Source: Glaucostegus cemiculus
Taxonomy: Eukaryota
DNA length: 64,000 nucleotides
Direction: 5' to 3'
Assembly (NCBI GenBank): GCA_976551045.1
Contig: CDPCPM010000091.1
Span: forward strand, 2,046,001-2,110,000
In this document: piece by piece, positions 1 through 36,400 of the stretch
How the letters are laid out: every line of letters starts with the position of its first letter
Numbering within the stretch: the first letter of the stretch is position 1
Program-made: the position numbers and the translations under genes
Notes under the pieces: model-generated
What the model was told of the DNA's origin: nothing
Seen by the model: the letters and a program-made list of their open reading frames with translations, nothing else
The model's database searches: none

Positions 1-2153
1 GTAACTTTACAGTTATTCTACAATTAAATCATCAATTCTAGGGACAAAGCAATAGTGCAACTTAGGAGTGAATGCTCCTGGTCTTGTTGAGTCCTGAAAC
101 TTGCCACCACATATTAGAAACAATAAACAGTTCAGTCAGTGATTGAACTACATTCTCAATCAGAAATGTTCCATTTTTATTTCATGTTCATTTGCAAATA
201 TTCATTTTGCTGCTTATGCAGATCAAACTGATTTGTCCTCTGCCAAAAATGAATGTTTTGGACAACTCAAAACCCTTTCTTGTTGTGCCTCCTGTCCCTA
301 TACTATAACTTGCTCTTAATCGGAATTTCTTAGTTGTTTCAGTAACAGGTAGGTTCACCAAATCACTTAAGTTAACTGCATAATTCTCTGAAATTAAGTG
401 GCATCTTAAATACAGAAGTCCAATGCAATCATTGGTTTTCTCATACGATTAAAATAACCAAGAGTGCTGCAGGCAAGTAATTCACCATTAAGAATTTGGA
501 ACATATTCCGATTATGAAAAGTAGTTGGGATGGTTATGTAGATGATTTAGTTCACTATCTCAGATGTCCCATTTTAGAGCTCAGCCTAGCTGTTTATATT
601 GTGGATGCTGCATTTTTCCACATTACACCACATGATGTGGCCAAAGGGATAGGTAACACTAAACCAGCAAGCAATGCTATGGGTTGGCTTTTTCAGAAAA
701 GCATACCCTTAGTTTTAAAATTAAAGAATATTTCAGCAACTGATGTCATTGAACCTCATTGGTTATCAGCTGGCTTTCTAACAAACAGCTTCTACTAGAG
801 TAACATAAGTTGACACTCTGAAGCCAATGAATGACAGAATGTAGCCAATAAATCTCTTTCCCCCAACTACAGCCAAGCAACTAAATACTGGGAAACAAAA
901 TAACTCAACGTTTTAAGAATTAGTTTAATTTTTTACTTTTTGTCTTAAAACAATCAATTATTTATTAATCTTGAGTCAGTGTCTCAAATTTAAAAGCTGA
1001 AAGTAATGTGTACAGGCAAAATTAAGTCAACAGGGCTACTGCTTATCAAAAAGCAGGAACCAGATTTCAAGCTGAGACAAGAGTTTAAGCCCTATCCATT
1101 GGTGCACTTCAGACTCTTGTGTCCCTGAAAGGATAACTTTAGGTCACACCACCCAATCTGTACATGGGAAGATACAAGATGTTGCAGAGGGTAATTGTGG
1201 AGAGTAATGATTAACTTGAATTTTGCAATGTGCCAGATAAACAGCACCAAGATCCAAAAGAAAATAAGCAATTGAGAGATCCAAATGTTTATTGAGTGGA
1301 ACTAATCACAATGAATCCCATTTCACATCCCCTCCCCTTGCCTGAGTGTCCAAAGGCCACAAAGGCCCTTGTTTTCACCACCAGTCTAATGAAGTGTTGG
1401 CCGATAACTGCTGTAAATTGTTGCCTACTTTTGAATATCAATGTCTATGACGTAAATGCACAAAACTAAGTGCCTTACATTGCTGCCTATTGGCTCAATG
1501 GAGAGCGCTACACGCCTCCAAGTAGAAGAGCAAACATCTGATTACTACTTTTTCAGTAATTCCATGTTAAAGTGGCCTTTAACCTGTGATGCAAGAATGA
1601 AGATTATTGCTCTCTGAGCTGACTTAGTGTGGCTCAAGTAGCGATAAGTGACTCTGCCCACTGGGCATAATAAATATTAACTGCATTTTGCTGTCTGCAA
1701 GTGCTAAAACATTGTCCCTTGGGCTCCAACATTGATGTAAAGTGTGTAATAATTGCGGCATGCTCTTGACACTTCCATGTTCCCTTGGGGACAATATTTT
1801 ACCACTTACAGTCTTGAAAAGCAGTCAATATTTGTGTACATTATGAATGAACTCCTCTCACAATAATACTGCAGCAAAGGCTCCATTCCAATTGCATTAC
1901 TTGCAGATTCATTCATGGCATGCTATTTAGTTATGGAATGGCATTCAGCTTACTTGTTTATGACAAAATCAATGTAAGTGCCACATGGCAAATGTTTATT
2001 CAGAAGAAGGGCACAATGTTAGAAATGGCAATGTGTCCTCACTGAACAAAAGCAAATGGCCATTTGCTGCAAAACAAAAGAGGCTGTTGATAAAATGGTT
2101 GGACGGTTATTGGCTTAATAAAAACTGATTGCCACCAAACCAAGTGTACCCAC

Positions 2154-2240
2154 CTTGACATGGAAGCATTCACTGTGAGTGCAGTGGGGTAAGGGTGTCG
2201 AAATCCCCCTGTTGTGATTGGGTAAACAGGTTGACCTTGC
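2154..2240 (-). CDS. tcf7l2: TCF7L2 coding exon (exon 8 in the 17-exon numbering), 87 nt: (Q)QGQPVYPITTGGFRHPYPTALTVNASMS
   Basis: Minus strand reads ttcttttcttttcag|GCAAGGTCAA...ATGTCAAG|gtgggt, phase 2-2. The translation matches the vertebrate TCF7L2 peptide (PVYPITTGG; TCF7L1 has PMYSLPPGG). Confidence 0.97.
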
Positions 2241-2841
2241 CTGAAAAGAAAAGAATAAAATAACTGGAAACTTCTGCTGTTGTGAGCTCGCTCTCATTTG
2301 AACCAGAACAAAAAATGTTGTTGATTGCACAGCCAGGATCAAAGGACGTAAATAAAGAACAATTTTAATGTGCTAAATCTGATAGAACCAGCTAATTAAA
2401 TTTTATAACCTCTGCTAATGTCAACAGAGACCTTCTCCCCAAGCTAAAACTAGGTGTTTTGTTGTGATAATTAAAGACGAAGCGGCATTTGCTTTAATGG
2501 AGCCATCACAATAATTGAGGGCTACAGATCCAAAGGAAAACAATAATGAATGTAAATTTATACCAAAATAAAATACATCAAATCAAAGAGCCGCTGTTCT
2601 GCTTTGGGCCTCTTTTGGTATTTAGAACTCAGTAAGAAAACATTAAATTAACAGTCCTTAATTTGTAGCCTTTTGTCATAGTAACCAGTGTTGACAGGCG
2701 TTGCCAAGGGAAAAGCCCAAATAAATATGTGGGTACCCAGTAGCCAATCACAGCTCATTACAATAATTGGACAATACAGTTACATGCAAAATTCTACAAG
2801 AATTAAAGGAATAAAAAGAAAAAAGAAATGGAACTGCTTAC

Positions 2842-2944
2842 TGTGGTACTAACCATCCTAGTGGATGGGGGATTTGGCCGACGGTACCAGGTGAGAGTGG
2901 GTAATAGGGAGAAATGTCTGAAGGATGCGGAGGTCTAGGAATTC
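2842..2944 (-). CDS. tcf7l2: TCF7L2 coding exon (exon 7), 103 nt: [34 protein letters not shown](Q). A short form ends at 2854 and lacks LVPQ.
   Basis: ttttttctag|GAATTCCT...GGATG|GTTAGTACCACA|gtaagc, phase 1-2, compatible with both neighbouring exons. Two donors lie 12 nt apart. Confidence 0.97.
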
Positions 2945-3782
2945 CTAGAAAAAAAGCAAAAAGCAACAAAGTTTATTCTCAAAAGTGAAGGGTACAAAAA
3001 GTTCATAACATGGTTATATTTGGATATGCCATTGCCCATTTAACTTCCTGTTTCCAATAATGCCAACTGTTAAAATGATTGCAAGCCAAACCTGTAATGG
3101 CCTGGGTCATGCACATTATTTGCTATAGCTCAACATCTAAAAAAAATTATTGCAACTTTTCCTAAATCTTAAACTCAAAGACTATTTATATCTGTGCCTT
3201 AGTAACACAACATTCAAATAGAATACAAGATGCAATTAGTTACATCATTTCTATACACATTTGATACAGTTTTAGGAATCACCAGGCCTTTCAATATTGT
3301 GGGTGTGCTCTCACAAGTCTGAATTAAGTGTTTTCCCACAAAACACTGTAGTTTCATTTAATCCTTTCCATAGCATTTAGCTTTTGAAATTAAGTATGCA
3401 GGAATTCATTTAGTATTTCTGTGAATTATCTTAAAAATGTGTGTGCTTTTAATACCTCCTGTAACACAATTATAGACACACTAGCCCCATTTCTTAAATC
3501 TGATTCACTTCATGGATTCTCTAAAGAGGGGGCTCATCAGCTCCAGCCCATCACATGGGATCTCTGCTGAGCTGGCTACAACCTGGCCTAGGAATTGGAT
3601 GTCACGCCTTTTTGTTGCGCTAAAAGGTGCTCAATTTGCCCTAACACCAAATGGGTCTACAAAAAACAAAAGTTGCTAAATTGGGACATTGCACTTTAAC
3701 AAATTGCTTTCATGGTCTTCTCCCATTAGACACCAAATCACACACTCACTGATAGAAGCCATGTCAACTCCCACTCACAGAG

Positions 3783-13987: not shown

Positions 13988-14120
13988 CTGTTTTGGGGTC
14001 CACATCTGCTGGTAAGTGTGGTGGAGGGTTACCTGGTGTGAAGTGTTCATTGCTGTATGTTATCAGCGGCGTTAGTGGATGAACATGATGAGGATGCTGC
14101 ACAACAGGTACTTTGTTAGA
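13988..14120 (-). CDS. tcf7l2: TCF7L2 coding exon (exon 6), 133 nt: [44 protein letters not shown](G)
   Basis: tttttcttttgacag|TCTAACAAA...AAAACAG|gtaggt, phase 0-1. TCF7L2-diagnostic residues [22 protein letters not shown]. Confidence 0.97.
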
Positions 14121-24100: not shown

Positions 24101-24757
24101 GCTACTTTCTTGGACTGGAAAATGTAAAGCACTTAAAAATGATAATTTTGTGTTTCATGATCCAGCTGATGTCTCTGATTATAAAGAGTTAATTAAGAAA
24201 GCCATCCCTCCCCTTCAAAATGACATTTAGATAGTAAAAGGAGAAAGCTTTTTTGCATTTGGGTCATATACATGATTTGCATACTGTTGCATAGAAAACA
24301 GCTTTGACAATTGAGCCATATTAAGAAACACTTTCTCAAACTACATGAGTATATTTCAAATCTATTTTAAAAGTACAATTTAACTAATTGGAAGCATGAC
24401 AGTGGAATGTCAGAACTCATCAGGATCCTAAAATGTAAATTTTGCACTAAAATCTGTGTGTAAAATATCTCAAACTAGATAACTATAGAGAAAGAAAATC
24501 GGTATCGAGATGGTTAAAACAACTTTCCTAATGCAAACCCAATGTTATGTTGCCTACAATTGTTTTTTTCTTTTTTTTTGTTTCTTCTTCACAGAAGAAA
24601 TTCTTATGAAAGCAATGTTACAAAGGTCACAGTTTCAAGTGTTGGATAGAAGGTCGCTACCTGAGCTGACCACCTCTTAACCACAGTGACTGGCCTTATC
24701 TGAAGCCCATCGGGTGAAATAAAATATAACCGTGCACTGTAGCATACAGTAACTTAC

Positions 24758-24880
24758 CCAGCTGTTTAGATTGAGGTGCCAGCAACCAAACTGATGGAAA
24801 AAGGAGAGCCCAGAGGCTAACGTTCCTCCTTTATTGTTCCCTTCTTCCATTCCCAGCAAAATTGCATCCCTCGGGTACAT
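24758..24880 (-). CDS. tcf7l2: Candidate alternative first coding exon, 41 codons: MYPRDAILLGMEEGNNKGGTLASGLSFFHQFGCWHLNLNSW, in frame with SNKVP
   Basis: GGCGGC-ATG start, 123 nt open, ends TGG|GTAAGT in phase 0. The upstream sequence is purine-rich with no acceptor tract. Confidence 0.6.
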
Positions 24881-25464
24881 GCCGCCTTGTCTTCTGTTGT
24901 CTCTTAACCTCTACAACTTTTCCCCCCCTTTCTCTCTTGCCTTGGTGCCGACTGCGCTTTTGTTTCTTCCTGGTTTTTCTAGCGTCTTTTTTTTTAAAGT
25001 ACTAAAAAAAGATGTCTCAAAAGATCAAGAGCTTCCCAGTTCTGTGGCCTGGTGTTTTTAGAACCAACATCCTTATTCAAGTTTGCCGTTGGTTGCATCT
25101 TAGTCCGAGTGCAATCCTATACCTGCTGTACAGCAGGGACCAAAATTTAGGACACAAACGATAACAGATCACTGCATCAAAATGCTCACTTAGGAATGAG
25201 CAAGACCGCACACACGGGTATAACCTCTTGCGTACTATTTATTTTCTTTTCAAAGCCTACAATTCTCCTAGGATTACCAAAATGACAATGCTGCAACTCT
25301 ATATGGAAAGGTATCAATAAGAGCAGGAGAGAAGAGACAAGCAGCGGTTAAGGGAGCATGATCAACAAACTGTAGCATGCAGTCACATCTGTGGGAATGT
25401 CAAATCCCTCACGCTGAAGTTCTGGGGGTAGAGCTGCGAGAAAGCCCTATTTCTTGTCACAGTG

Positions 25465-25545
25465 ACATATATATACACCATACATATATACACACACACA
25501 CACTCACATACATACAGACACACACACACATAGATATATAAATGC
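25465..25545. repeat. Compound (TA)n/(CA)n microsatellite
   Basis: Read directly. Confidence 0.9.
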
Positions 25546-26610
25546 ATATAAAAACAGACACCTGTGAGGTCTTGCCATCAATCCCAGCATTTTTTTTTAT
25601 TATGGTAGTAAATGCAAAGAGGAGAAAAGGCAAAGCACTAGATCTCACTGCAGCTTCTCTTGGCTGACCTCAGCTACATACAATATACAAGAGCAGCTTT
25701 TGTATTGCAAGGATTCTCTTTGAGTTGCTTTGCATACTGCTTCCCGTCACTAATTGCATCCCCAAACAAAACCCTCTCCATCTTAAAAATTGAGGGGAAG
25801 GTGTGGGGGTAGGCAGCTCAAATGTTCCAGTAAATGTCTTTTTTTTTACAATAAAAGCAAAAGTAATGAAATGGTCCCATTAACCCTCACCCCACCTTCT
25901 CAATGTAGGTGGAATTTAGCACCCGACACCAATCCCTGCCCCTCCAACCCATCACAGGATTTCAAAATAACCCCATCAAGTTTTTGGGGGAAAAAAATCA
26001 AACTTCACACCACGCACACCATTTTTAAACTCATCTAGGAGGTACTACGGGACACTTAACACACCTTTCCTCATATATCTACACTGGGCAAGGAAAGTGA
26101 CAAGACACAAGGACTGGAGAAACAAAACAGTGTGCAGTTTTTCCCTCTTTATTTAGCGCTCCACACTAATCTGGCCTTCGCGTGCAAAGTGTCGGCCAGA
26201 AATCTTTAAGGCCTTAATACCAAAACAAAACCTTTGAATTCCCTTTATATGGTGCAATACAGGCACTAACAAAGGCAATGAGGCTGCAGTTTGACATGTA
26301 AAAAGCCCAACAACGAGGCAGCTAATTACATTCCCTCCCTCTATTCACAGTGGCCACCACACTCCAGCAGCTTCCTTTGTCACACGTGCAATTTCTTAAG
26401 TAAACTGGGAGTTTGGTTGCTGATGATGGACAGTTACTAATCATTTAGCACAATGAGCACTAAGTGCGGCAGAAAGGATGGGCAACTTCATCACAGATTT
26501 CTTTGGGATTGGAGGATGTGAGAAGAAAAAGGAGCGGGGCGAAAGCTCGCCACACAGGCGACGGAAGGTGAACACTTAAAATACCAGACCTTTTCAGCTC
26601 GCTTATTTAC

Positions 26611-26664
26611 CTTGCGACTACTGAGGGGTGGGGGGGGGCAGGGAGGAGCAGCCATTTGAGGGGG
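26611..26664 (-). CDS. tcf7l2: Candidate 54-nt symmetric exon PPQMAAPPCPPPPLSSRK, or the 3' part of a longer first exon starting at ATG 26751
   Basis: ttttctctctgcctttccctccacattccag|CCCCCT...CGCAAG|gtaaat, phase 0-0, no stop codon. Confidence 0.35.
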
Positions 26665-26941
26665 CTGGAATGTGGAGGGAAAGGCAGAGAGAAAACTGTG
26701 GGAAAGAGGGAATGCAAATTCAACTTGCCATATCAGATCAACTTCAACCATTGCGTCTAGTTAAAACAAAACTAAATGCTTCCTTCATTCAACAGTTTTA
26801 AAAAGTTTTGTATTTTTAAAAATTGTACTTATAATGAAACAGACAGCAAAACAATTCATCTAAAAGTTATCATATTTGCTTGTCCAAAATAGCACTTCTC
26901 AAAGCTCAACAGTCAGGCCTCCTTAAATTGTTCTAACTTAC

Positions 26942-27060
26942 CATTTACACCTACTCAAATTACGATGCTTCACACTGCCTGAATTCAAGCATGCTGCCGT
27001 TCCCGTGCTACAGTACAAATCAGCCAGCTCTTCATGATGTGGGCAGATCCACTGGAGGGC
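26942..27060 (-). other. tcf7l2: Candidate alternative first exon ending in ATG|GTAAGT (5' boundary unknown)
   Basis: Plus strand has acttac at 26936-26941 and cat at 26942-26944. The ATG would join directly to SNKVP. Confidence 0.55.
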
Positions 27061-27749
27061 AGCACCCTACCTGAGCCACTTACAGCCAAGATGCTGCTGA
27101 GATAGGGGCACGAAGCGACTGCATCCAACTCCAGCTCTCCAGGAAAAGATGCTCAAGTTCAGGTCTATTCAGTGAATTACCTTGCTTCACGGGAAAGAGA
27201 TAATGAGATGGCAGCGCTCATTTGATCAGAAGCAGCCCCAAACCACCCTTAACAGTTCAGAAAAGAACAAAAGATCAACTGTCGCATGCTTACTTGGCAA
27301 CATTAAAACCAGTTGAAGCCTCTCATAATGTTAAATTGACTGGTATTTTGAAGCCACAGACAAAAAAAAAGATTTTCGCCCCTCACTCCTCCCCCCACGC
27401 TGTATAAAAGCTAACCTACCTTTTATTTTCCCCACATATCCAGCTCTGCTAAACACGCTGATCGGGAAATGGCAAAACTGAGCAATAATTTTCACACACT
27501 GAATCCAAGTTTTAGAAAAAAAATTAACTTAAAGAATATCTGTACACTTAATGCTTACAACTGCCGAATGTGGCAAGCGGCTCCATAAAGCTTCACTGCC
27601 CACTTTTGAAGCCTGCGTTACTAACACACGCAGAATGACACCGCTGAGCGCCTTTAAAGAATACTAGGAAAAAAATGACTATTGATCTTCAAATGGTGAT
27701 AATTGAAAAGATCAAAAGATTAAACAAAATCAAAAATGCGCTGACTTAC

Positions 27750-27900
27750 CATGTTATGCTTTTTTTTTTGTTACAACTTGGTTGAAATTTCAGTCAAACA
27801 AGCTTCATCGGAGGTGTCAAATTTTTTGGCGGACTGTGATCGTATTACTTCCGCAGCCGTGCCTCACAATACTTCAGAACTTTTTACCTAGCTTTGGTTT
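27750..27900 (-). other. tcf7l2: Candidate alternative first exon ending in ATG|GTAAGT (5' boundary unknown)
   Basis: Plus strand has acttac at 27744-27749 and cat at 27750-27752. Context AAC-ATG (A at -3). CpG-enriched, with an ETS motif ACTTCCG at 27847-27853. Confidence 0.6.
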
Positions 27901-30900
27901 ACTTTGAAAGCTGCAGCTCAGCAAACCAGCACAAATTATCTTGCCACCTTCTACAGCTCTGATGCTTTGGCCGCTAACTTTGGAAGGCCCTTTACTACTG
28001 CATCAAAATTAGCATTGTCAAAGCAGTTAATGAATATTAATACTGTATTTGTCATTGGAGCTGGCCTGATGCTGAACTCCGAGCCATCCATCAGGGACAA
28101 GATTAAGAACACAATTATTTCTGACTGACAGGGTCCAAATCTGCTAGATTTTTTTTTGCAATCTAAAAAAAAAGAGACAAAAAAATAACATCTTATGGGT
28201 TCCCCCTGGGGACTAACAGTCAGATTAATACACTTTTAATGAAGTGAAGGCTATTAAGTATGAAGAAAAAGCAAACAAGATGTACAAGTCGAACTTACAA
28301 ATGCAGCAAGGTGGCTGATAAAAATTAAAAGAATCGCATATCTTTTTCGACAGCTGTCTGAAATTTTTCTTCAGAGCTTTCTGGAATGAAGAAAGAATCT
28401 TTCTTCCCAAATCTGCATCATTTGAATAAGGAATGCACTGTTATAATCCACTTGGGATAATTGTCTCTATCTTACATCTTAACAACATCAACTCAAAGAC
28501 AGGATCCTAAATAATTCCTACACAAATATTATAATCAACACTTCCTTAAAAGCAATGGACAATGACAATTATTCTCTCACTCACATCTGCATAAATCATA
28601 TCAAAAATATTTTGCAAAATAAAAAGCACCAAATAGAATCTTGTACACATTGTTACGATATACCATAATATAGTTTGCAAAAAATTACCTTGAACAATTA
28701 AGGGACAAAAAATAGATTTAGATTCACTGCCCAAATCCTAGGAGCAACTTTGACATAGTCAATTTTTGTGGGAATTTCAAAGTCTTGAAATCAACAAAAG
28801 GGTAACTTGGATCAACTAAGTTCTCTTGTACTTGCAGCGAAAGCACACTAATGCTCCCCGTGTTTAAAGACATGGCCTGCCCGTCTTGTAAATCTACAAA
28901 CACACAGTAAATATCATTTGCTATTTACTCATTTTTACTTACTCTCACATCACCAAATTTTGTTCCCTGTATTTTAATTTGCGCATGGTTTACACATTTA
29001 AAAAAAAAGCACTACATAAAATGTCTACCCCGCTAATACAGGATTTGTAATAGGGAAGAAGGGAAAAAGTTCAGATGCAGTATGAAGGAAGTCTGGACTA
29101 TAGTCATTTGAATTGCAAACCTAAAATGTTTAAATTTCTCAGCAACCCTTCAAGCTTAATCCTGATGCGCCAAAAGCGGGCAAGTATAGGACCAGTCTTA
29201 TCCCTGCTCACAGGGCTCATTTTCCATTCTCTGCAATGTTAAACCTTTTAAAGCTATTTTATTTAAAAGGTGATTTAAGGTTGGGGAGGAGCAGGAGGAG
29301 GAGGAGGAGGAAAGTAAAAAAAAACAGAAAACTGACAGATGCAACGGTTAATGCCATCTGACCAGTGAAACGAGGGTGTCTGGGTCAAGCAACTATGGCT
29401 ACCGAACTAATCTACTGCTCTCAGTGACCACCCTACTGGCTGCTCCTAATACCATTAGCAATCGTTAGATGAACATTCTAAATTGGAGTTTTGTCCTCCG
29501 ATGAGCCGGTCTGACCCCGGTGCAATAACCCTGCAGCTCCATATGCAGATGGCAAATCTCCTGAAAACGCTTCTTTCGGCTTTTAAGATTTCCTTCCCGA
29601 GCATGTGTCCTTTTCTTTCAAACTATTCTCTTTACCCTCCCTGGCTCAAAATAAACTCTGCTAACACGAAGATGTGTCCAGTTCTCTGGCCAGTTACTTG
29701 CACCATTCAATTTCAGCCGCAAGTCCTGATACATTTGGAACAATCTGTTGCATTTTACTTGTCTTTAGGCAAATTACTTTTTACACTGCGCTCTTCAGAA
29801 TGGAGGGTGGGGAGGTGGTGGTTGAAGGGAGTATTCGCGACAATGGAGAATGTTTGGGAACACTGCCAGATTTGAGGCTTTCAAACCAAGTGAACTTAGA
29901 GGCTGTAGACTGTAGCAGTGGGTGCAGAAAGCATTTGCCTGACAGAACATTTACGGCAGACAGCTCCCGCTACCTCTACTTACGCAGCACGATCACATCA
30001 GCCCTAGTATCAAATTAACTCACTGACTTTGAAAGTTATTGATCTGCTATTAAGACACTAGTGAACTTGATGAAATCAGTGCTGTAGGTGCAGTGAAGAC
30101 TTCAAAGTCTCACACAGACACATAAAACAAGTTGCTTTGATCCTTTTTACGATCCGCAGAGGGTTTAAAGCCCAGTTCTCGATGCGCTGCTTTTCACACT
30201 CGTCAGGTCTGATTTTTTATACCAACAGACAGCTTGATAATGTTAATAGTGCATATTTTAGCAAACAACTAATTCTAAACTAATATCTTAATCTGTCCAG
30301 ACAAACAGCATCATTTAAACATGTCAAACAAAACCAATTTCACCTTTATTAGTGCCTGCACTGCAGGAATCAGGAATTTTTAATGTTTGCAGTGCACAGA
30401 ATTCTGCTCTTTCTTACATTCGCTATTTTGTCATCAAGGTGAGAACTAACTTGTGCACACACACTTAAATTCTTATGCTAAGGATTGTTCATTAACATTT
30501 ATAGAATAGTACCACAAAAGATCACAAATAAATAAATCGTAGCTTATTTTATGGATTTATTGAACAAATTAAGTGCAGAATCTTTAATTATTATTCAAAG
30601 TTTTTTTAATTTTGAAAAAAGGACAGTAGATTCTGAAAGTAACAAAAAGGCTATTAGAAATAAAAAATCTGTAAATCACCAGTTAGCACTGGTGTCAGAA
30701 CAGCAACTATGCAATGAAAAACACAAGTAGGATACGAAAAATAAACAAGACTGAAATAGGAAACTGCTTCATTAGACTAGGGAATTATTTTTGTGATAAT
30801 AAAACAATTGAAATACAAAAGTCTACATGATTAAATGACTCATAAATTAGTCCCTAGATCACCCATTAGGAACAACAATTATTTCTTGTACACAGAACGC

Positions 30901-32149
30901 ACCGCATGCCAACTTGAAAAATTAAGATGTTGGTAAATAACACTGAAATGGTAATTTAAAAATGTTGCATGTTTGCAAAAAGACAAATTAATTTTTTTTT
31001 TAGAAAATCTGTTACACTCTACAAATTATTAATTTTAACCAAGGAAATTGTTTAACATTAGGAGGGGATACAAATATGAGCGCTTTTGAAAGCTACATTT
31101 TAAAATGTATTCAGCAAAAGTGGCAATTATGTACAGAGCACATCAACTGATAATGAGAAATTGTACGTTACTATAAACAAATAAAAATCAACTGCAAGTG
31201 CCCACCATCATTTTGCCATCAAATTCTAGAAACGGCTCATGCAAATTCACTGCAAAAGAAAGAGTTCTCTCCTTTAGACAGTTCTCACCAAAACACTGTT
31301 CACTAATGAAATCATCTACAATACAATTCAGGAACAAATTAACTTTTTGTACTAGCTGCTGGGGTCCCACTTACAATTCTAATGAAGTCAACACTCCAAT
31401 AAGATGTGTTCAGAAAGTTTCCTGGGCCACCAGCTCAGAGATCCTTTTCACCAATTAGTGCAAAGAAAAAGAAGGGGAAAAAACAGAGTGCCCTACTCAA
31501 AGAGCTAGGCCTTACGGCAATTCTGTCATGTCGACTGAATTGATCAACGGGACTGGTATTTCTAATGGCATCTTGTCAGGAAAAGTCAGCCATAGGGAGC
31601 CACCTTTGCAGACAGCTACAGAACTGGATACCGATCTCAGGCAGCATCTTTTACTAACAATTTGGGAGAACAATCCGATTTCTGCTGCAGTACAACTTGT
31701 CATTCTGCAATCATCACCTGGCTTCCTTTTTTCCCAAGGATGGTTTTATGCTGAAAGAAGCTTTTCTATTGACAGGCGAATTTATTAGAAAATCAGGACG
31801 ATACTAAACAGTGAAAATTATCCATTTCAACCAAAACCAATTAACCGTGCATATGATTATACTCATGAATTCCTTTGCTATAACATTAAATAGAATGTAG
31901 ACTTTACAACACAGGATATCACAGATGCTGTGTAGAGGCCTTTTTTTGGCCATATAGAGTAATATTCCAGGTTGCATGATACAACATCAGCAATCTCAGG
32001 GATCAGCTCCTGAGACCACAAGGAGCCAGTTCATGAGCTAATATAGCACCATGTTACCAAAAAGCATTTTAAGAATATGAATGGCCAGATTTATACCAAC
32101 CATGATACATTTTCATGGAAAAATTGCTAGATACATATATTAGGTCCAG

Positions 32150-33400
32150 TTTGTTATGCGAGTCAAAAACACTTGGATTGTAAATCACGTATCGCAACCT
32201 TTCTTGCTCTCATCAGTCAATGAGATTCTCAGGACTTTTTCTGCAGCCTGCGGCGGTGGCTTTGCCCAGGGACATGTACCAAGAGAAAAATTTTCATCGT
32301 GTTAGCATTTCAAATGGCAGAAAGTGAAAGGAAGCTCTAAGTGATCATAGCCTGCGGAATTAATTGGCTAGCTTCTGAATAATGTCGGTCTTCGAATATC
32401 CTTGAGAGACGAGCACTAGCCGAGGCCCCATTTTGAGCAGCGGCTTCAAATAAAAAGCGCTAAGGGGTATAAGGCTTCAGCGCATTTCCCTGAAGACCAA
32501 GAAAACAGAACCAGCAACCTCGCCCAACTAATCCATTTGGTAATTAAATGCACAATTCCATTAAGCGTTCTTCCATCGAATTTCAAAATTGTAAGAACAA
32601 AAGATTACAACGGTTCTAAATGTATGTGCAGGATACCACGTATTAATGCAATGAGCGCAGCTGGAAGACTTATGTTTTAAGTGAGGAAAATTTAAAATAT
32701 TCTCGGCTTTTTGCCAGTGTTAAAACAAAGGAGTCAAGTAGGCGCCATGTTGCTACTTGTTCCATTCTGCGGGATTAAAGTTTGAGGTTTTTTTTCCATT
32801 CATCAAAGGATATGCAATGACCCTGCTTGATATCACTATACCTCTCTTTAAGAGGCATCTTAATCTAACCTTTTTAAGACTCTTTGCTTTCAAACTCAAA
32901 ACACCATTAAAAATAGGCATTGTTGGTCAGCCCTGGGAGACTGAGCGCCTGGCTTTCGCTGACCAAGGCAGTAGACCTCTGGATAGGCAGCTGCTTACGC
33001 AACTAAATCANNNNNNNNNNNNNNNNNNNNNNNNNNNNNNNNNNNNNNNNNNNNNNNNNNNNNNNNNNNNNNNNNNNNNNNNNNNNNNNNNNNNNNNNNN
33101 NNNNNNNNNNNNNNNNNNNNNNNNNNNNNNNNNNNNNNNNNNNNNNNNNNNNNNNNNNNNNNNNNNNNNNNNNNNNNNNNNNNNNNNNNAATCTTCGCAA
33201 ATGTTCCATCTTTCGTTATCGACTGCAGCCTAGCACGAGGTGTCAATTTTCAGCTCTAAAGAGAGGACACAAATTCGCAGCGGTCCCATTATGCGGTCTC
33301 TTCGCTCATTGTATATTCCGTCAACGAAGTCAATCTTATTAACTTCCGCTCTGGTTCACACATGACATTTTCTTCAATTTTCTTGCCAACATCAAAAACA
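32150..33400. promoter_or_regulatory. Second CpG-enriched promoter/enhancer-like block spanning an assembly gap
   Basis: Many CG dinucleotides, a TAAT/ATTA cluster at 32355-32570, ATCAAAGG at 32802-32809, ACTTCCG at 33342-33348 and a sense-strand donor C|GTAAGC at 32993-32999. Confidence 0.4.
33011..33189. other. Assembly gap (179 N)
   Basis: Run of N characters. Confidence 1.
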
Positions 33401-36400
33401 TCAATTAGCAGCTAGAAAATAGGAAGGAACAAATGACAGGGCCCGATAACGTCAACTATTTGAAACAGAGGGTAAATCTATTCTGCAGTACTGAATGCAT
33501 TCATTACCAATTCATTTTCAAAGGAGACTTCCAAATAGCAAAGAAAATTAAATTTATCATCCAGAAATGTCCAGAAATTGTTTGTTTTTTTAATCCTATA
33601 TCTACTGTGCCATTTTCAAATACAACATGAAGCAGCATGCCTAGTTTCAGCATCAGCAATGTAACTTGGAGAGAAGTTGAATTAGTTGGGTTCAGCAGTA
33701 TTCAGAATGCATTAGCTTGTACGTAGAAACATGAAATAAATGCCACCACCCTGATTTATGGCAATATTTCTGCACTTTATTGGCCTAACTTTTCTAAATT
33801 TAAGTTACAAGATCACTTCATCCATCAAAATAAGACAGAAATTATAAACTTTTATGCTTTGTTCAGGAGACTTTCACTGGATAACCGACTTTATCTAAAA
33901 AGAGTAATGTGGGAAACCTTATTTTGCTATACTTAAGTAAAAAGCAATTTCTGCTGATATGCCTGCTTTATGAGAAGGCTTTCATGGTTGCATTACATCT
34001 CCTCGGGAGTGAATAAAAGCGAATTTAGTGGCTGCTGAAGACTACTGCTCGGAATTAATGTGAACAGAAAAGAGCAGCTACACCAAATAAACAGATCACT
34101 TTCCTCTGGCCATTGATTTCTTGATCTTTTGACATTATTTACGAGCTTCCTATTCTCTTTCCTGTCTTTTTTCCAATGTCACAAAGGAAAAATGTCTAAA
34201 CAGCTGATGGCAGGATTATCAATTAGCTGTCAAGATTCTGCTTTCCAGCACTGAACAATACCTGCCATAATGCCGAAGATCGGTAATACTGCGAGACAAT
34301 TCTAATACAGTGCTCTCCACGCTGACTGGGAGAGCAGAGTGGCAAGCCTTGAATGAAATTTGTACCTCGATCATTGCTACAAATATATTGATTTATCTGG
34401 CGTAACCAAATACATATTGTGAATTATAATTAAGAATTTATATTTAATATCAGATAACGTCGACTTGCAAATACACATTTTTCGGTTCAAAATATAGGAT
34501 GGTAGCAGATAGGGTGCTCTATTCCAACCGCAAAAGCTCTTGTAAACACATTCCATTGGCATTGTATTAATTTCTTTTAGTGCATGCTAGAACCTAGCCT
34601 TGGTGTTCCTTGCTATTCTGTTTGCCTTGGAGGTGGGGGCATATTACAGTAACAGGAGGATGGCTGCACTCATTCCAACTGTGGTAGACATTTCCACATG
34701 AAACATAGCTCTGCTTTTAAAGACTAGCAAGCTGTGTAAATGAGTGTCAGGCAAAGACAATTTATTCAGCATTTTAAAGATATCCAAGACACTTCCTCTA
34801 CCATGTTAGTGCTGATTTAATAAATTATTCTAAAAGACCAAATAATTTCCAAAGTTATTCAATGCTACATATAGTTAAAATTTCAGTTGTAGGGGTGCCT
34901 ATAATTACAAGAGATAATAAAGCAAGTAAGTCATTACACTAGTTAGTGCTAACAAAAATAATGTAGGATGAACCACATCTGAAGTGATGTATATTAAATT
35001 ACACCTTAAAAGGTACTTAAAAATAGTTTCAATTTATTTAAAAATTTTGTGCATTCAGTTTACCAAAACTTTCATTAGAATTCAACTATTATTAACTGAC
35101 AGAACAAGCATCTCCAAGATGCAAACAACAACCTGTTCAAAGTGGCTCAAGTGAATGATATTTGTAGGTTCTGTCATATTTAAAACCAATAACATTGCTG
35201 GATAATTTATTCTATGTTTTATTACTGTCTGAATGTTCCATGGTACCTTAAAAAATAGCATGCTCCAGATAGAGTGGCTAAAGGAGTTACAAGTACTTTA
35301 AACATTGCCTTAGAATATCCTGAACAATAATCAGTCTGAATACATTTAGGGCAGGAAAAAAGAAAAAAATCTTCAAAGATTCTCCAATACTTTAACATCC
35401 AGCTATCTTTTGCTAAAAAAAAATTCCAATCTGCAGAACCTTGCAGCTTTCCCACTGTGGCACAGAATTCTAAAATATCATAGCAAAGCTCTATAACACT
35501 AAATAACAATATTAGAGTTCCTATTTTAAATTGATTTTTTTTTTGTTAAACATTTGAAGATTTCTAAACCTTATTTGGGCAAAGTTAAATTCCAATATTC
35601 CACACAAGAGTTATTACTAATTTTCTGACAATTTACACCACTATTTGGAGTAATATGACCAAATATTTTTTTATTGTTGTGTAAATACCAATTTGTTCAT
35701 TGACCATAAGCAGCAAACAGTAACCACAAGCTGCTGATTACCGGTATTTGCGGTTGTGGTTCTGCACGATGCTCTGTCCTTGAAGCTGATGCCGCACACG
35801 AATCCATTAAGCGAGAGTGTTGGTGCTCTTGATCTATTATTTACAAAGAAAACCCTCCCCTTGCTTAAGTGGCCCCTACACTTCAGCCTTCATTACAAGA
35901 TTTTTATACTTGTAAAAAACCCAAACACAGTTTAATCAGACTGATAGCACCTACACCCTGTCCAATCTTGCTGCATGAGATTTTAGAAAACCAGCATTCC
36001 TAGCAATATCACTATCACTGAGCAATGTTATATTTTTAACATCCAAAATTAAACTAAATCGATCAGCTGAGACCATATGCCACTTGGCCCTTTTGATACA
36101 AAATTTAACAGTTTTCCACCTACTGTACATTAAATCATACATTTCGTTGGTTACTGTAGTTTATAAGGCTGCCTCTCAGGTTATGAAACAATGTATAATT
36201 AAAAAATATTCTATGCAGTGATTTTAACATTTATATAGTGTGAAGATACATTAAGGAAATTACTAAAGGATTCAGTGAATTTTTTGAGATCAACATATGA
36301 GAAACATTATTTTTCACACCACTGTTTAACTTATTTATGCAATATTTTATGCTTCACTTAAGTATTTACATTTCAAACCTACAAGGCAATTTAAATGCAC

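Follow-up and report, generated by a model that had tools for sequence, protein, structure and literature searches.

Does the internal promoter known from intron 5 of mammalian TCF7L2 have a counterpart in cartilaginous fishes? In mouse, this promoter is said to be activated by Vax2 and to make the dominant-negative form dnTcf7l2, as reportedly described by Vacik, Stubbs and Lemke in 2011. An earlier note on DNA from Glaucostegus cemiculus had proposed that the same switch exists in this species, on the strength of two ATG|GTAAGT motifs that could each end a first exon holding nothing but the start codon. Here we examine these two motifs (D1 and D2), together with a third candidate first exon (D3) and the sequence around them, within the window, that is, the whole 64-kb stretch of DNA analysed (C91:2046001-2110000 of this genome assembly). 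The features are collected in Table 1.

Table 1. TCF7L2 features in the window, ordered along the sense (minus) strand.
Feature	Position	Strand	Basis or remark
Non-coding element, highly conserved, immediately upstream of D1	27901..28244	(-)	86% over 353 nt to L005, long unbroken run
D1, ATG then GTAAGT donor	27744..27752	(-)	likely closes a first exon whose coding part is the start codon alone; A at -3
D2, ATG then GTAAGT donor	26936..26944	(-)	likely closes a second such first exon
Further candidate donors, consensus-like (n=4)	last exonic base 27420, 27071, 26065, 25896	(-)	donor scan
D3, alternative first exon: coding part of 41 codons in phase 0	24758..24880	(-)	homology to annotated isoforms
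TCF7L2 exon 6, 133 nt, phase-0 start, no Met	13988..14120 (C91:2059988-2060120)	(-)	common acceptor for exon 5 and internal first exons
TCF7L2 exon 7 (~2945-2829) and exon 8 (~2242-2150)	2150..2945	(-)	tblastn

The host gene is TCF7L2, as the earlier note had it: exon 6 matches named TCF7L2 proteins at 100% identity, and ray TCF7L2 maps exon by exon with its best scores on contig C91, while the paralogues lie on C10, C84 and C578. The same mapping placed exon 5 at C91:2120935-2121054 (minus strand), outside the window, and, combined with a profile search, exon 1 at C91:2187457 (minus strand), which covers positions 1-64 of PF08347. Since exon 5 lies beyond the window and exon 6 starts at 14120, positions 14121-64000 are intron 5, and the order of exons 1, 5 and 6 on the minus strand puts D1 and D2 inside it. 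Exon 6 does begin in phase 0, with a pyrimidine tract and AG ahead of it. At one position of exon 7 the residue is Ser, as in the proteins of skate, shark and chimaera, and not Pro as in chicken, mouse and marmot; this pattern fits a cartilaginous-fish TCF7L2. The 3' end of exon 7 (2945-2829, minus strand) is a 12-nt optional stretch, which in mouse is an alternative 5' splice site according to the available portion of PMC3825142. In the TCF paralogue at C578:1166441-1166803 (minus strand), only about 80 nt separate the counterparts of exons 6 and 7, a distance that is 11 kb in TCF7L2.

The strongest evidence for an ancient intron-5 isoform is D3, which is absent from the earlier note. A protein search with exon 6, in which 120 of 3823 matches were listed, gave TCF7L2 isoforms in which exon 6 is directly preceded by a 41-residue N-terminus, and D3 is the orthologous exon of this N-terminus. 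A G|GTAAGT donor (24757-24752) comes right after D3, and its start has a G at -3. D3 is identical at 39 of 41 residues to the N-termini of both Leucoraja erinacea X18 (P0100, XP_055502842.1) and Rhinoraja longicauda X10 (P0371, XP_078269608.1); both are automatic database models, and in both the N-terminus runs directly into exon 6. Amniote versions, such as the alternative 41-residue N-terminus of chicken X11 (XP_015144042.1), share 24-31 of the 41 residues. Homologues were found in 53 of the 475 fetched proteins, from teleosts (by name carp, toothfish and plaice) to mammals; a word-based search had found one protein, and a full HMMER search found 22 representatives. Their length is 41 residues in 50 cases, 39 in two and 42 in one, so that only whole codons changed, and M1, G24, W34, L38 and W41 are invariant across the 41 distinct versions. 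After the homologue, 27 proteins continue into exon 6, 19 into Val-Ser, which is the translation of a retained (unspliced) donor, and seven otherwise. The window thus contains a first exon orthologous to those of tetrapods and in phase with exon 6, to which 27 of the 53 homologues are joined, two of them in skates. The preserved start, frame and donor, together with indels of whole codons, suggest a coding exon, and on this comparative evidence D3 is very probably used in G. cemiculus.

The D3 N-terminus had no match in Pfam, and no second copy was found in this genome by a DNA search, where a blank result is weak. Its predicted fold consists of two helices (mean pLDDT 62, pTM 0.24), too weak to use. 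No functional description of the 41-residue N-terminus was found in the literature searched.

At the proposed promoter region, a highly conserved non-coding element (28244-27901) is present. TAAT/ATTA cores are enriched there, with 29 per kb in 27940-28110 versus 14 per kb in the intron. The element is likely the core of an internal promoter or enhancer, and it would correspond to the element bound by Vax2. It has a single match in the genome, with no paralogous copy found in a DNA search whose blank result is weak. The one orthologous piece of DNA compared with it, L005, is a metagenome contig whose matching part comes from another vertebrate; it was the one locus obtained from at least 596 pattern matches. 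The likeness of L005 to the block tails off shortly before D1. From about position 753 onwards this contig carries, on the other strand, an exon from a two-TAZ-domain gene, presumably p300/CBP, which in this genome lies on other contigs; after the TAZ exon, within the same part of L005 (730-2000), follows what we take to be a broken reverse-transcriptase-like stretch. Because L005 switches to the two-TAZ-domain gene before D1, it is chimeric and silent on D1, and we discarded its lack of an ATG|GT at the D1 position as evidence.

The frame at 28091-27948 is 90% identical to ab initio translations from birds (P0049, P0072 and P0080). We rejected a coding exon here, as the G. cemiculus frame contains a stop, and the conserved stretch is consequently a non-coding element; the three bird models mis-annotate it as a TCF7L2 first exon. 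That a non-coding element gives such a well-conserved pseudo-translation warns that conserved translations can mislead, and it lends something to the idea that G. cemiculus has no internal promoter here, the block serving the long TCF7L2 transcript purely as a cluster of enhancers and D3 being conserved for non-coding reasons. However, a stop interrupts the G. cemiculus frame of the element, whereas the start, frame and donor of D3 are all preserved across its 53 homologues, in which indels affect whole codons only, and two skate models connect D3 to exon 6; we consider this idea very improbable. The stretch from 24.7 to 28.3 kb is instead, with high confidence, the orthologue of the intron-5 first-exon region.

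The earlier note had described the block as CpG-enriched and repeat-free. The enrichment stands, with an observed/expected ratio of 0.40-0.48 (0.40 over 24.5-28.5 kb) versus 0.23 in the window, but it is modest and is exceeded at 32-34 kb (0.61-0.70). The block is not wholly free of repeats: TRF found an AC microsatellite between D2 and D3 and a 19-nt tandem just below D1. The interval 32001-34000, which has the highest CpG ratio of the window, adjoins a stretch of N and lies about 4-5 kb above the conserved element; it may represent a further regulatory or first-exon region. Between D2 and D3, a second conserved-looking, CpG-bearing stretch was noted by eye (26640-26150, minus strand), with TATA-like and HMG-site-like motifs.

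The two motifs themselves are located as the earlier note had reported. ATGGTAAGT occurs exactly twice in the 64-kb window, both times on the minus (sense) strand; a position scan confirmed the spacing of 808 nt, and the distance to exon 6, put at about 13 kb, is 13.6 kb for D1 and 12.8 kb for D2. How far such a pair departs from chance depends on the space considered, and all the estimates that follow concern a motif picked after being seen. Window-wide the pair is unremarkable and within chance: on both strands the mean of shuffled sequences is 0.69 copies, and 17 of 100 shuffles had two or more. On the sense strand of the intron part, the probability of at least two copies is 0.03-0.05. In the 3.3 kb that separate the conserved element from D3, bounds that were set independently of the 9-mers, it falls to 2-3e-4 (Markov orders 1-3). 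A tandem duplication as the origin of D1 and D2 was rejected, their likeness being confined to about 24 nt around the motif.

Donor motifs in general are dense in this region. The sense strand has five G|GTAAGT in 64 kb, and three of them are D1, D2 and D3, all with an in-frame ATG. Among consensus-like donors in the intron part, 7 of 36 fall within 24700-28300, a density of 1.9 per kb versus 0.63 outside. The four further candidates are those of Table 1, and an in-frame ATG precedes only the one at 25896. This ATG opens a frame of 19 codons (25952-25896, minus strand) that runs to a candidate donor of lesser strength, in phase 0 relative to exon 6; the N-termini of the fetched proteins included no homologue of it.

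Exon 6 contains no Met, and the next one lies about 105 residues downstream, so a start Met from D1 or D2 would be required. The start context of D2 is weak, with T at -3 and a stop codon immediately ahead. Within 450 nt upstream there are seven ATGs at D1 and seven at D2, all closed before the donor ATG. Database proteins with the predicted product, in which a Met is directly followed by exon 6, numbered 7 of the 475 fetched (mouse, degu, spiny mouse, marmot, chicken, king quail and song sparrow), that is, amniotes only in this sample. D1 and D2 would give the same product, and they may be orthologous to the amniote first exons behind it. In mouse (XP_006526957.1/958.1), chicken (XP_040558186.1/187.1) and quail, one such protein has consecutive accessions, as two first exons differing in UTR only would give; paired accessions also occur for full-length isoforms (e.g., P0123), so this is no proof of two first exons. 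By hand count, none of the approximately 185 shark, ray and chimaera proteins among the matches listed starts with Met and exon 6, and two carry D3; four large clusters contributed 15 of their 34, 18, 54 and 270 proteins to this count, and the search favoured long proteins.

These data bear on two alternatives to our reading of D1 and D2. The internal isoform could be real but made through D3 only, perhaps with one of the ATG donors, leaving D1, D2 or both as chance motifs in a conserved regulatory block. The two cartilaginous-fish models, which show D3 only, would agree with this, as would the weak context of D2 and a motif chosen after the fact; the block-level chance of the 9-mer pair (about 2e-4) does not, and neither do the amniote models, according to which ATG|GT first exons do occur in intron 5. 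We regard this alternative as unlikely, although it is the most serious of those considered. Alternatively, D1 and D2 could be donors of first exons that are non-coding or poorly translated, with the protein coming mostly from D3 or a downstream Met and the RNA mattering more than the Met. Against this, both of the strongest donors are directly preceded by an ATG in frame with exon 6; the many upstream ATGs, the context of D2 and the three other candidate donors of the block without in-frame ATG speak for it. So does the single main short band near 35 kDa described for mouse, in the excerpts available, despite at least ten such exons, yet database proteins of both types would run near this band: 31.7 kDa for Met plus exon 6 with a short tail and 35.5 kDa for the D3 type. 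We consider this second alternative rather improbable. As we read the sequence, then, D1 is probably used in G. cemiculus, and for D2 we lean, less firmly, towards use as well.

Database isoforms of both types lack positions 1-137 of PF08347 and retain the HMG box in Pfam searches; in P0100 and P0224 the match starts only at positions 138 and 148 of 222. Since two skates thus have annotated isoforms that lack the beta-catenin-binding domain, this arrangement arose before jawed vertebrates split. The claim that a beta-catenin-blind intron-5 isoform is older than the divergence of sharks and bony fishes therefore holds at the level of sequence comparison, mainly through D3. Its description as a Wnt-repressor switch was overstated: according to the accessible part of a 2025 preprint (10.64898/2025.12.27.696670), short and long isoforms are redundant in the embryonic mouse thalamus, against a simple dominant-negative role.

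The feature is real, and it is the orthologue of a known mouse and Xenopus system, with the skate D3 already modelled in databases. A truncated TCF7L2 form is described in Xenopus and mouse (PMC4963812, in the sections available). In the accessible text of PMC3825142, the intron-5 promoter accounts for about 70% of Tcf7l2 mRNA in the embryonic thalamus, with a 35-kDa band; that of PMC10208975 gives at least ten alternative first exons in mouse brain, eight of them within about 6 kb, and reports that their deletion abolishes the short protein and impairs vocalisation. Two further papers (PMC6908431 and PMC6772062), as far as their available text goes, cite the downstream start and contain nothing further on these exons. 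[quoted passage not shown] It differs in being a cartilaginous fish in which the system is known from sequence alone, and in that D3 adds a 41-residue N-terminus that the passages available on the mouse and Xenopus system do not mention. Short LEF1, from an intron-2 promoter, and short TCF7 also lose the beta-catenin-binding domain through an internal promoter (PMC3825142 and PMC4963812, available passages), but they involve other introns of paralogous genes. The literature searched, mostly titles and abstract openings with few subscription papers, yielded no report of a cartilaginous-fish short isoform or of the 41-residue N-terminus.

Taken as a whole, we think it probable that the block is an intron-5 internal promoter region with several first exons, including D1, D2 and D3. 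Transcription would start inside the 24.7-28.3 kb block, and several first exons there would each splice in phase 0 to exon 6. D3 would add the conserved 41-residue N-terminus, as its homology to the annotated skate isoforms shows, and D1 and D2, if spliced as predicted, likely add the start Met alone. By analogy with mouse, neural expression is likely driven by the element above D1 by way of its homeodomain sites, and the resulting proteins may affect Wnt targets. The exon maps or supplements of Vacik 2011 and of Vacik and Lemke 2011 could already describe D1-D3 and their conservation in fishes.

These results date the internal TCF7L2 promoter of mouse and frog, which excerpts of PMC10208975 report to be needed for mouse vocalisation, to the last common ancestor of jawed vertebrates. 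They also provide exact candidate junctions for embryos of catshark or skate, in which Wnt-dependent habenular asymmetry is reportedly studied (PMC11589584). The best lead, and the part worth following, is the uncharacterised 41-residue N-terminus, kept from skates to mammals with no family match. A bolder proposal, which we hold only tentatively and think unlikely, is that short TCF7L2 is more than a truncated competitor, and that the intron-5 cluster acts as a switch of N-termini which goes back as far as jawed vertebrates do. The choice would lie between a bare Met (D1, D2) and a 41-residue D3 module, whose invariant Gly, Trp, Leu and Trp positions would recruit a separate partner instead of beta-catenin, so that the brain isoforms would differ in activity. 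If the 41-residue peptide does have a partner, the brain-specific short isoforms would not be one class, and the existence of more than one class would, if true, bear on the dispute over whether short isoforms antagonise or duplicate the long form.
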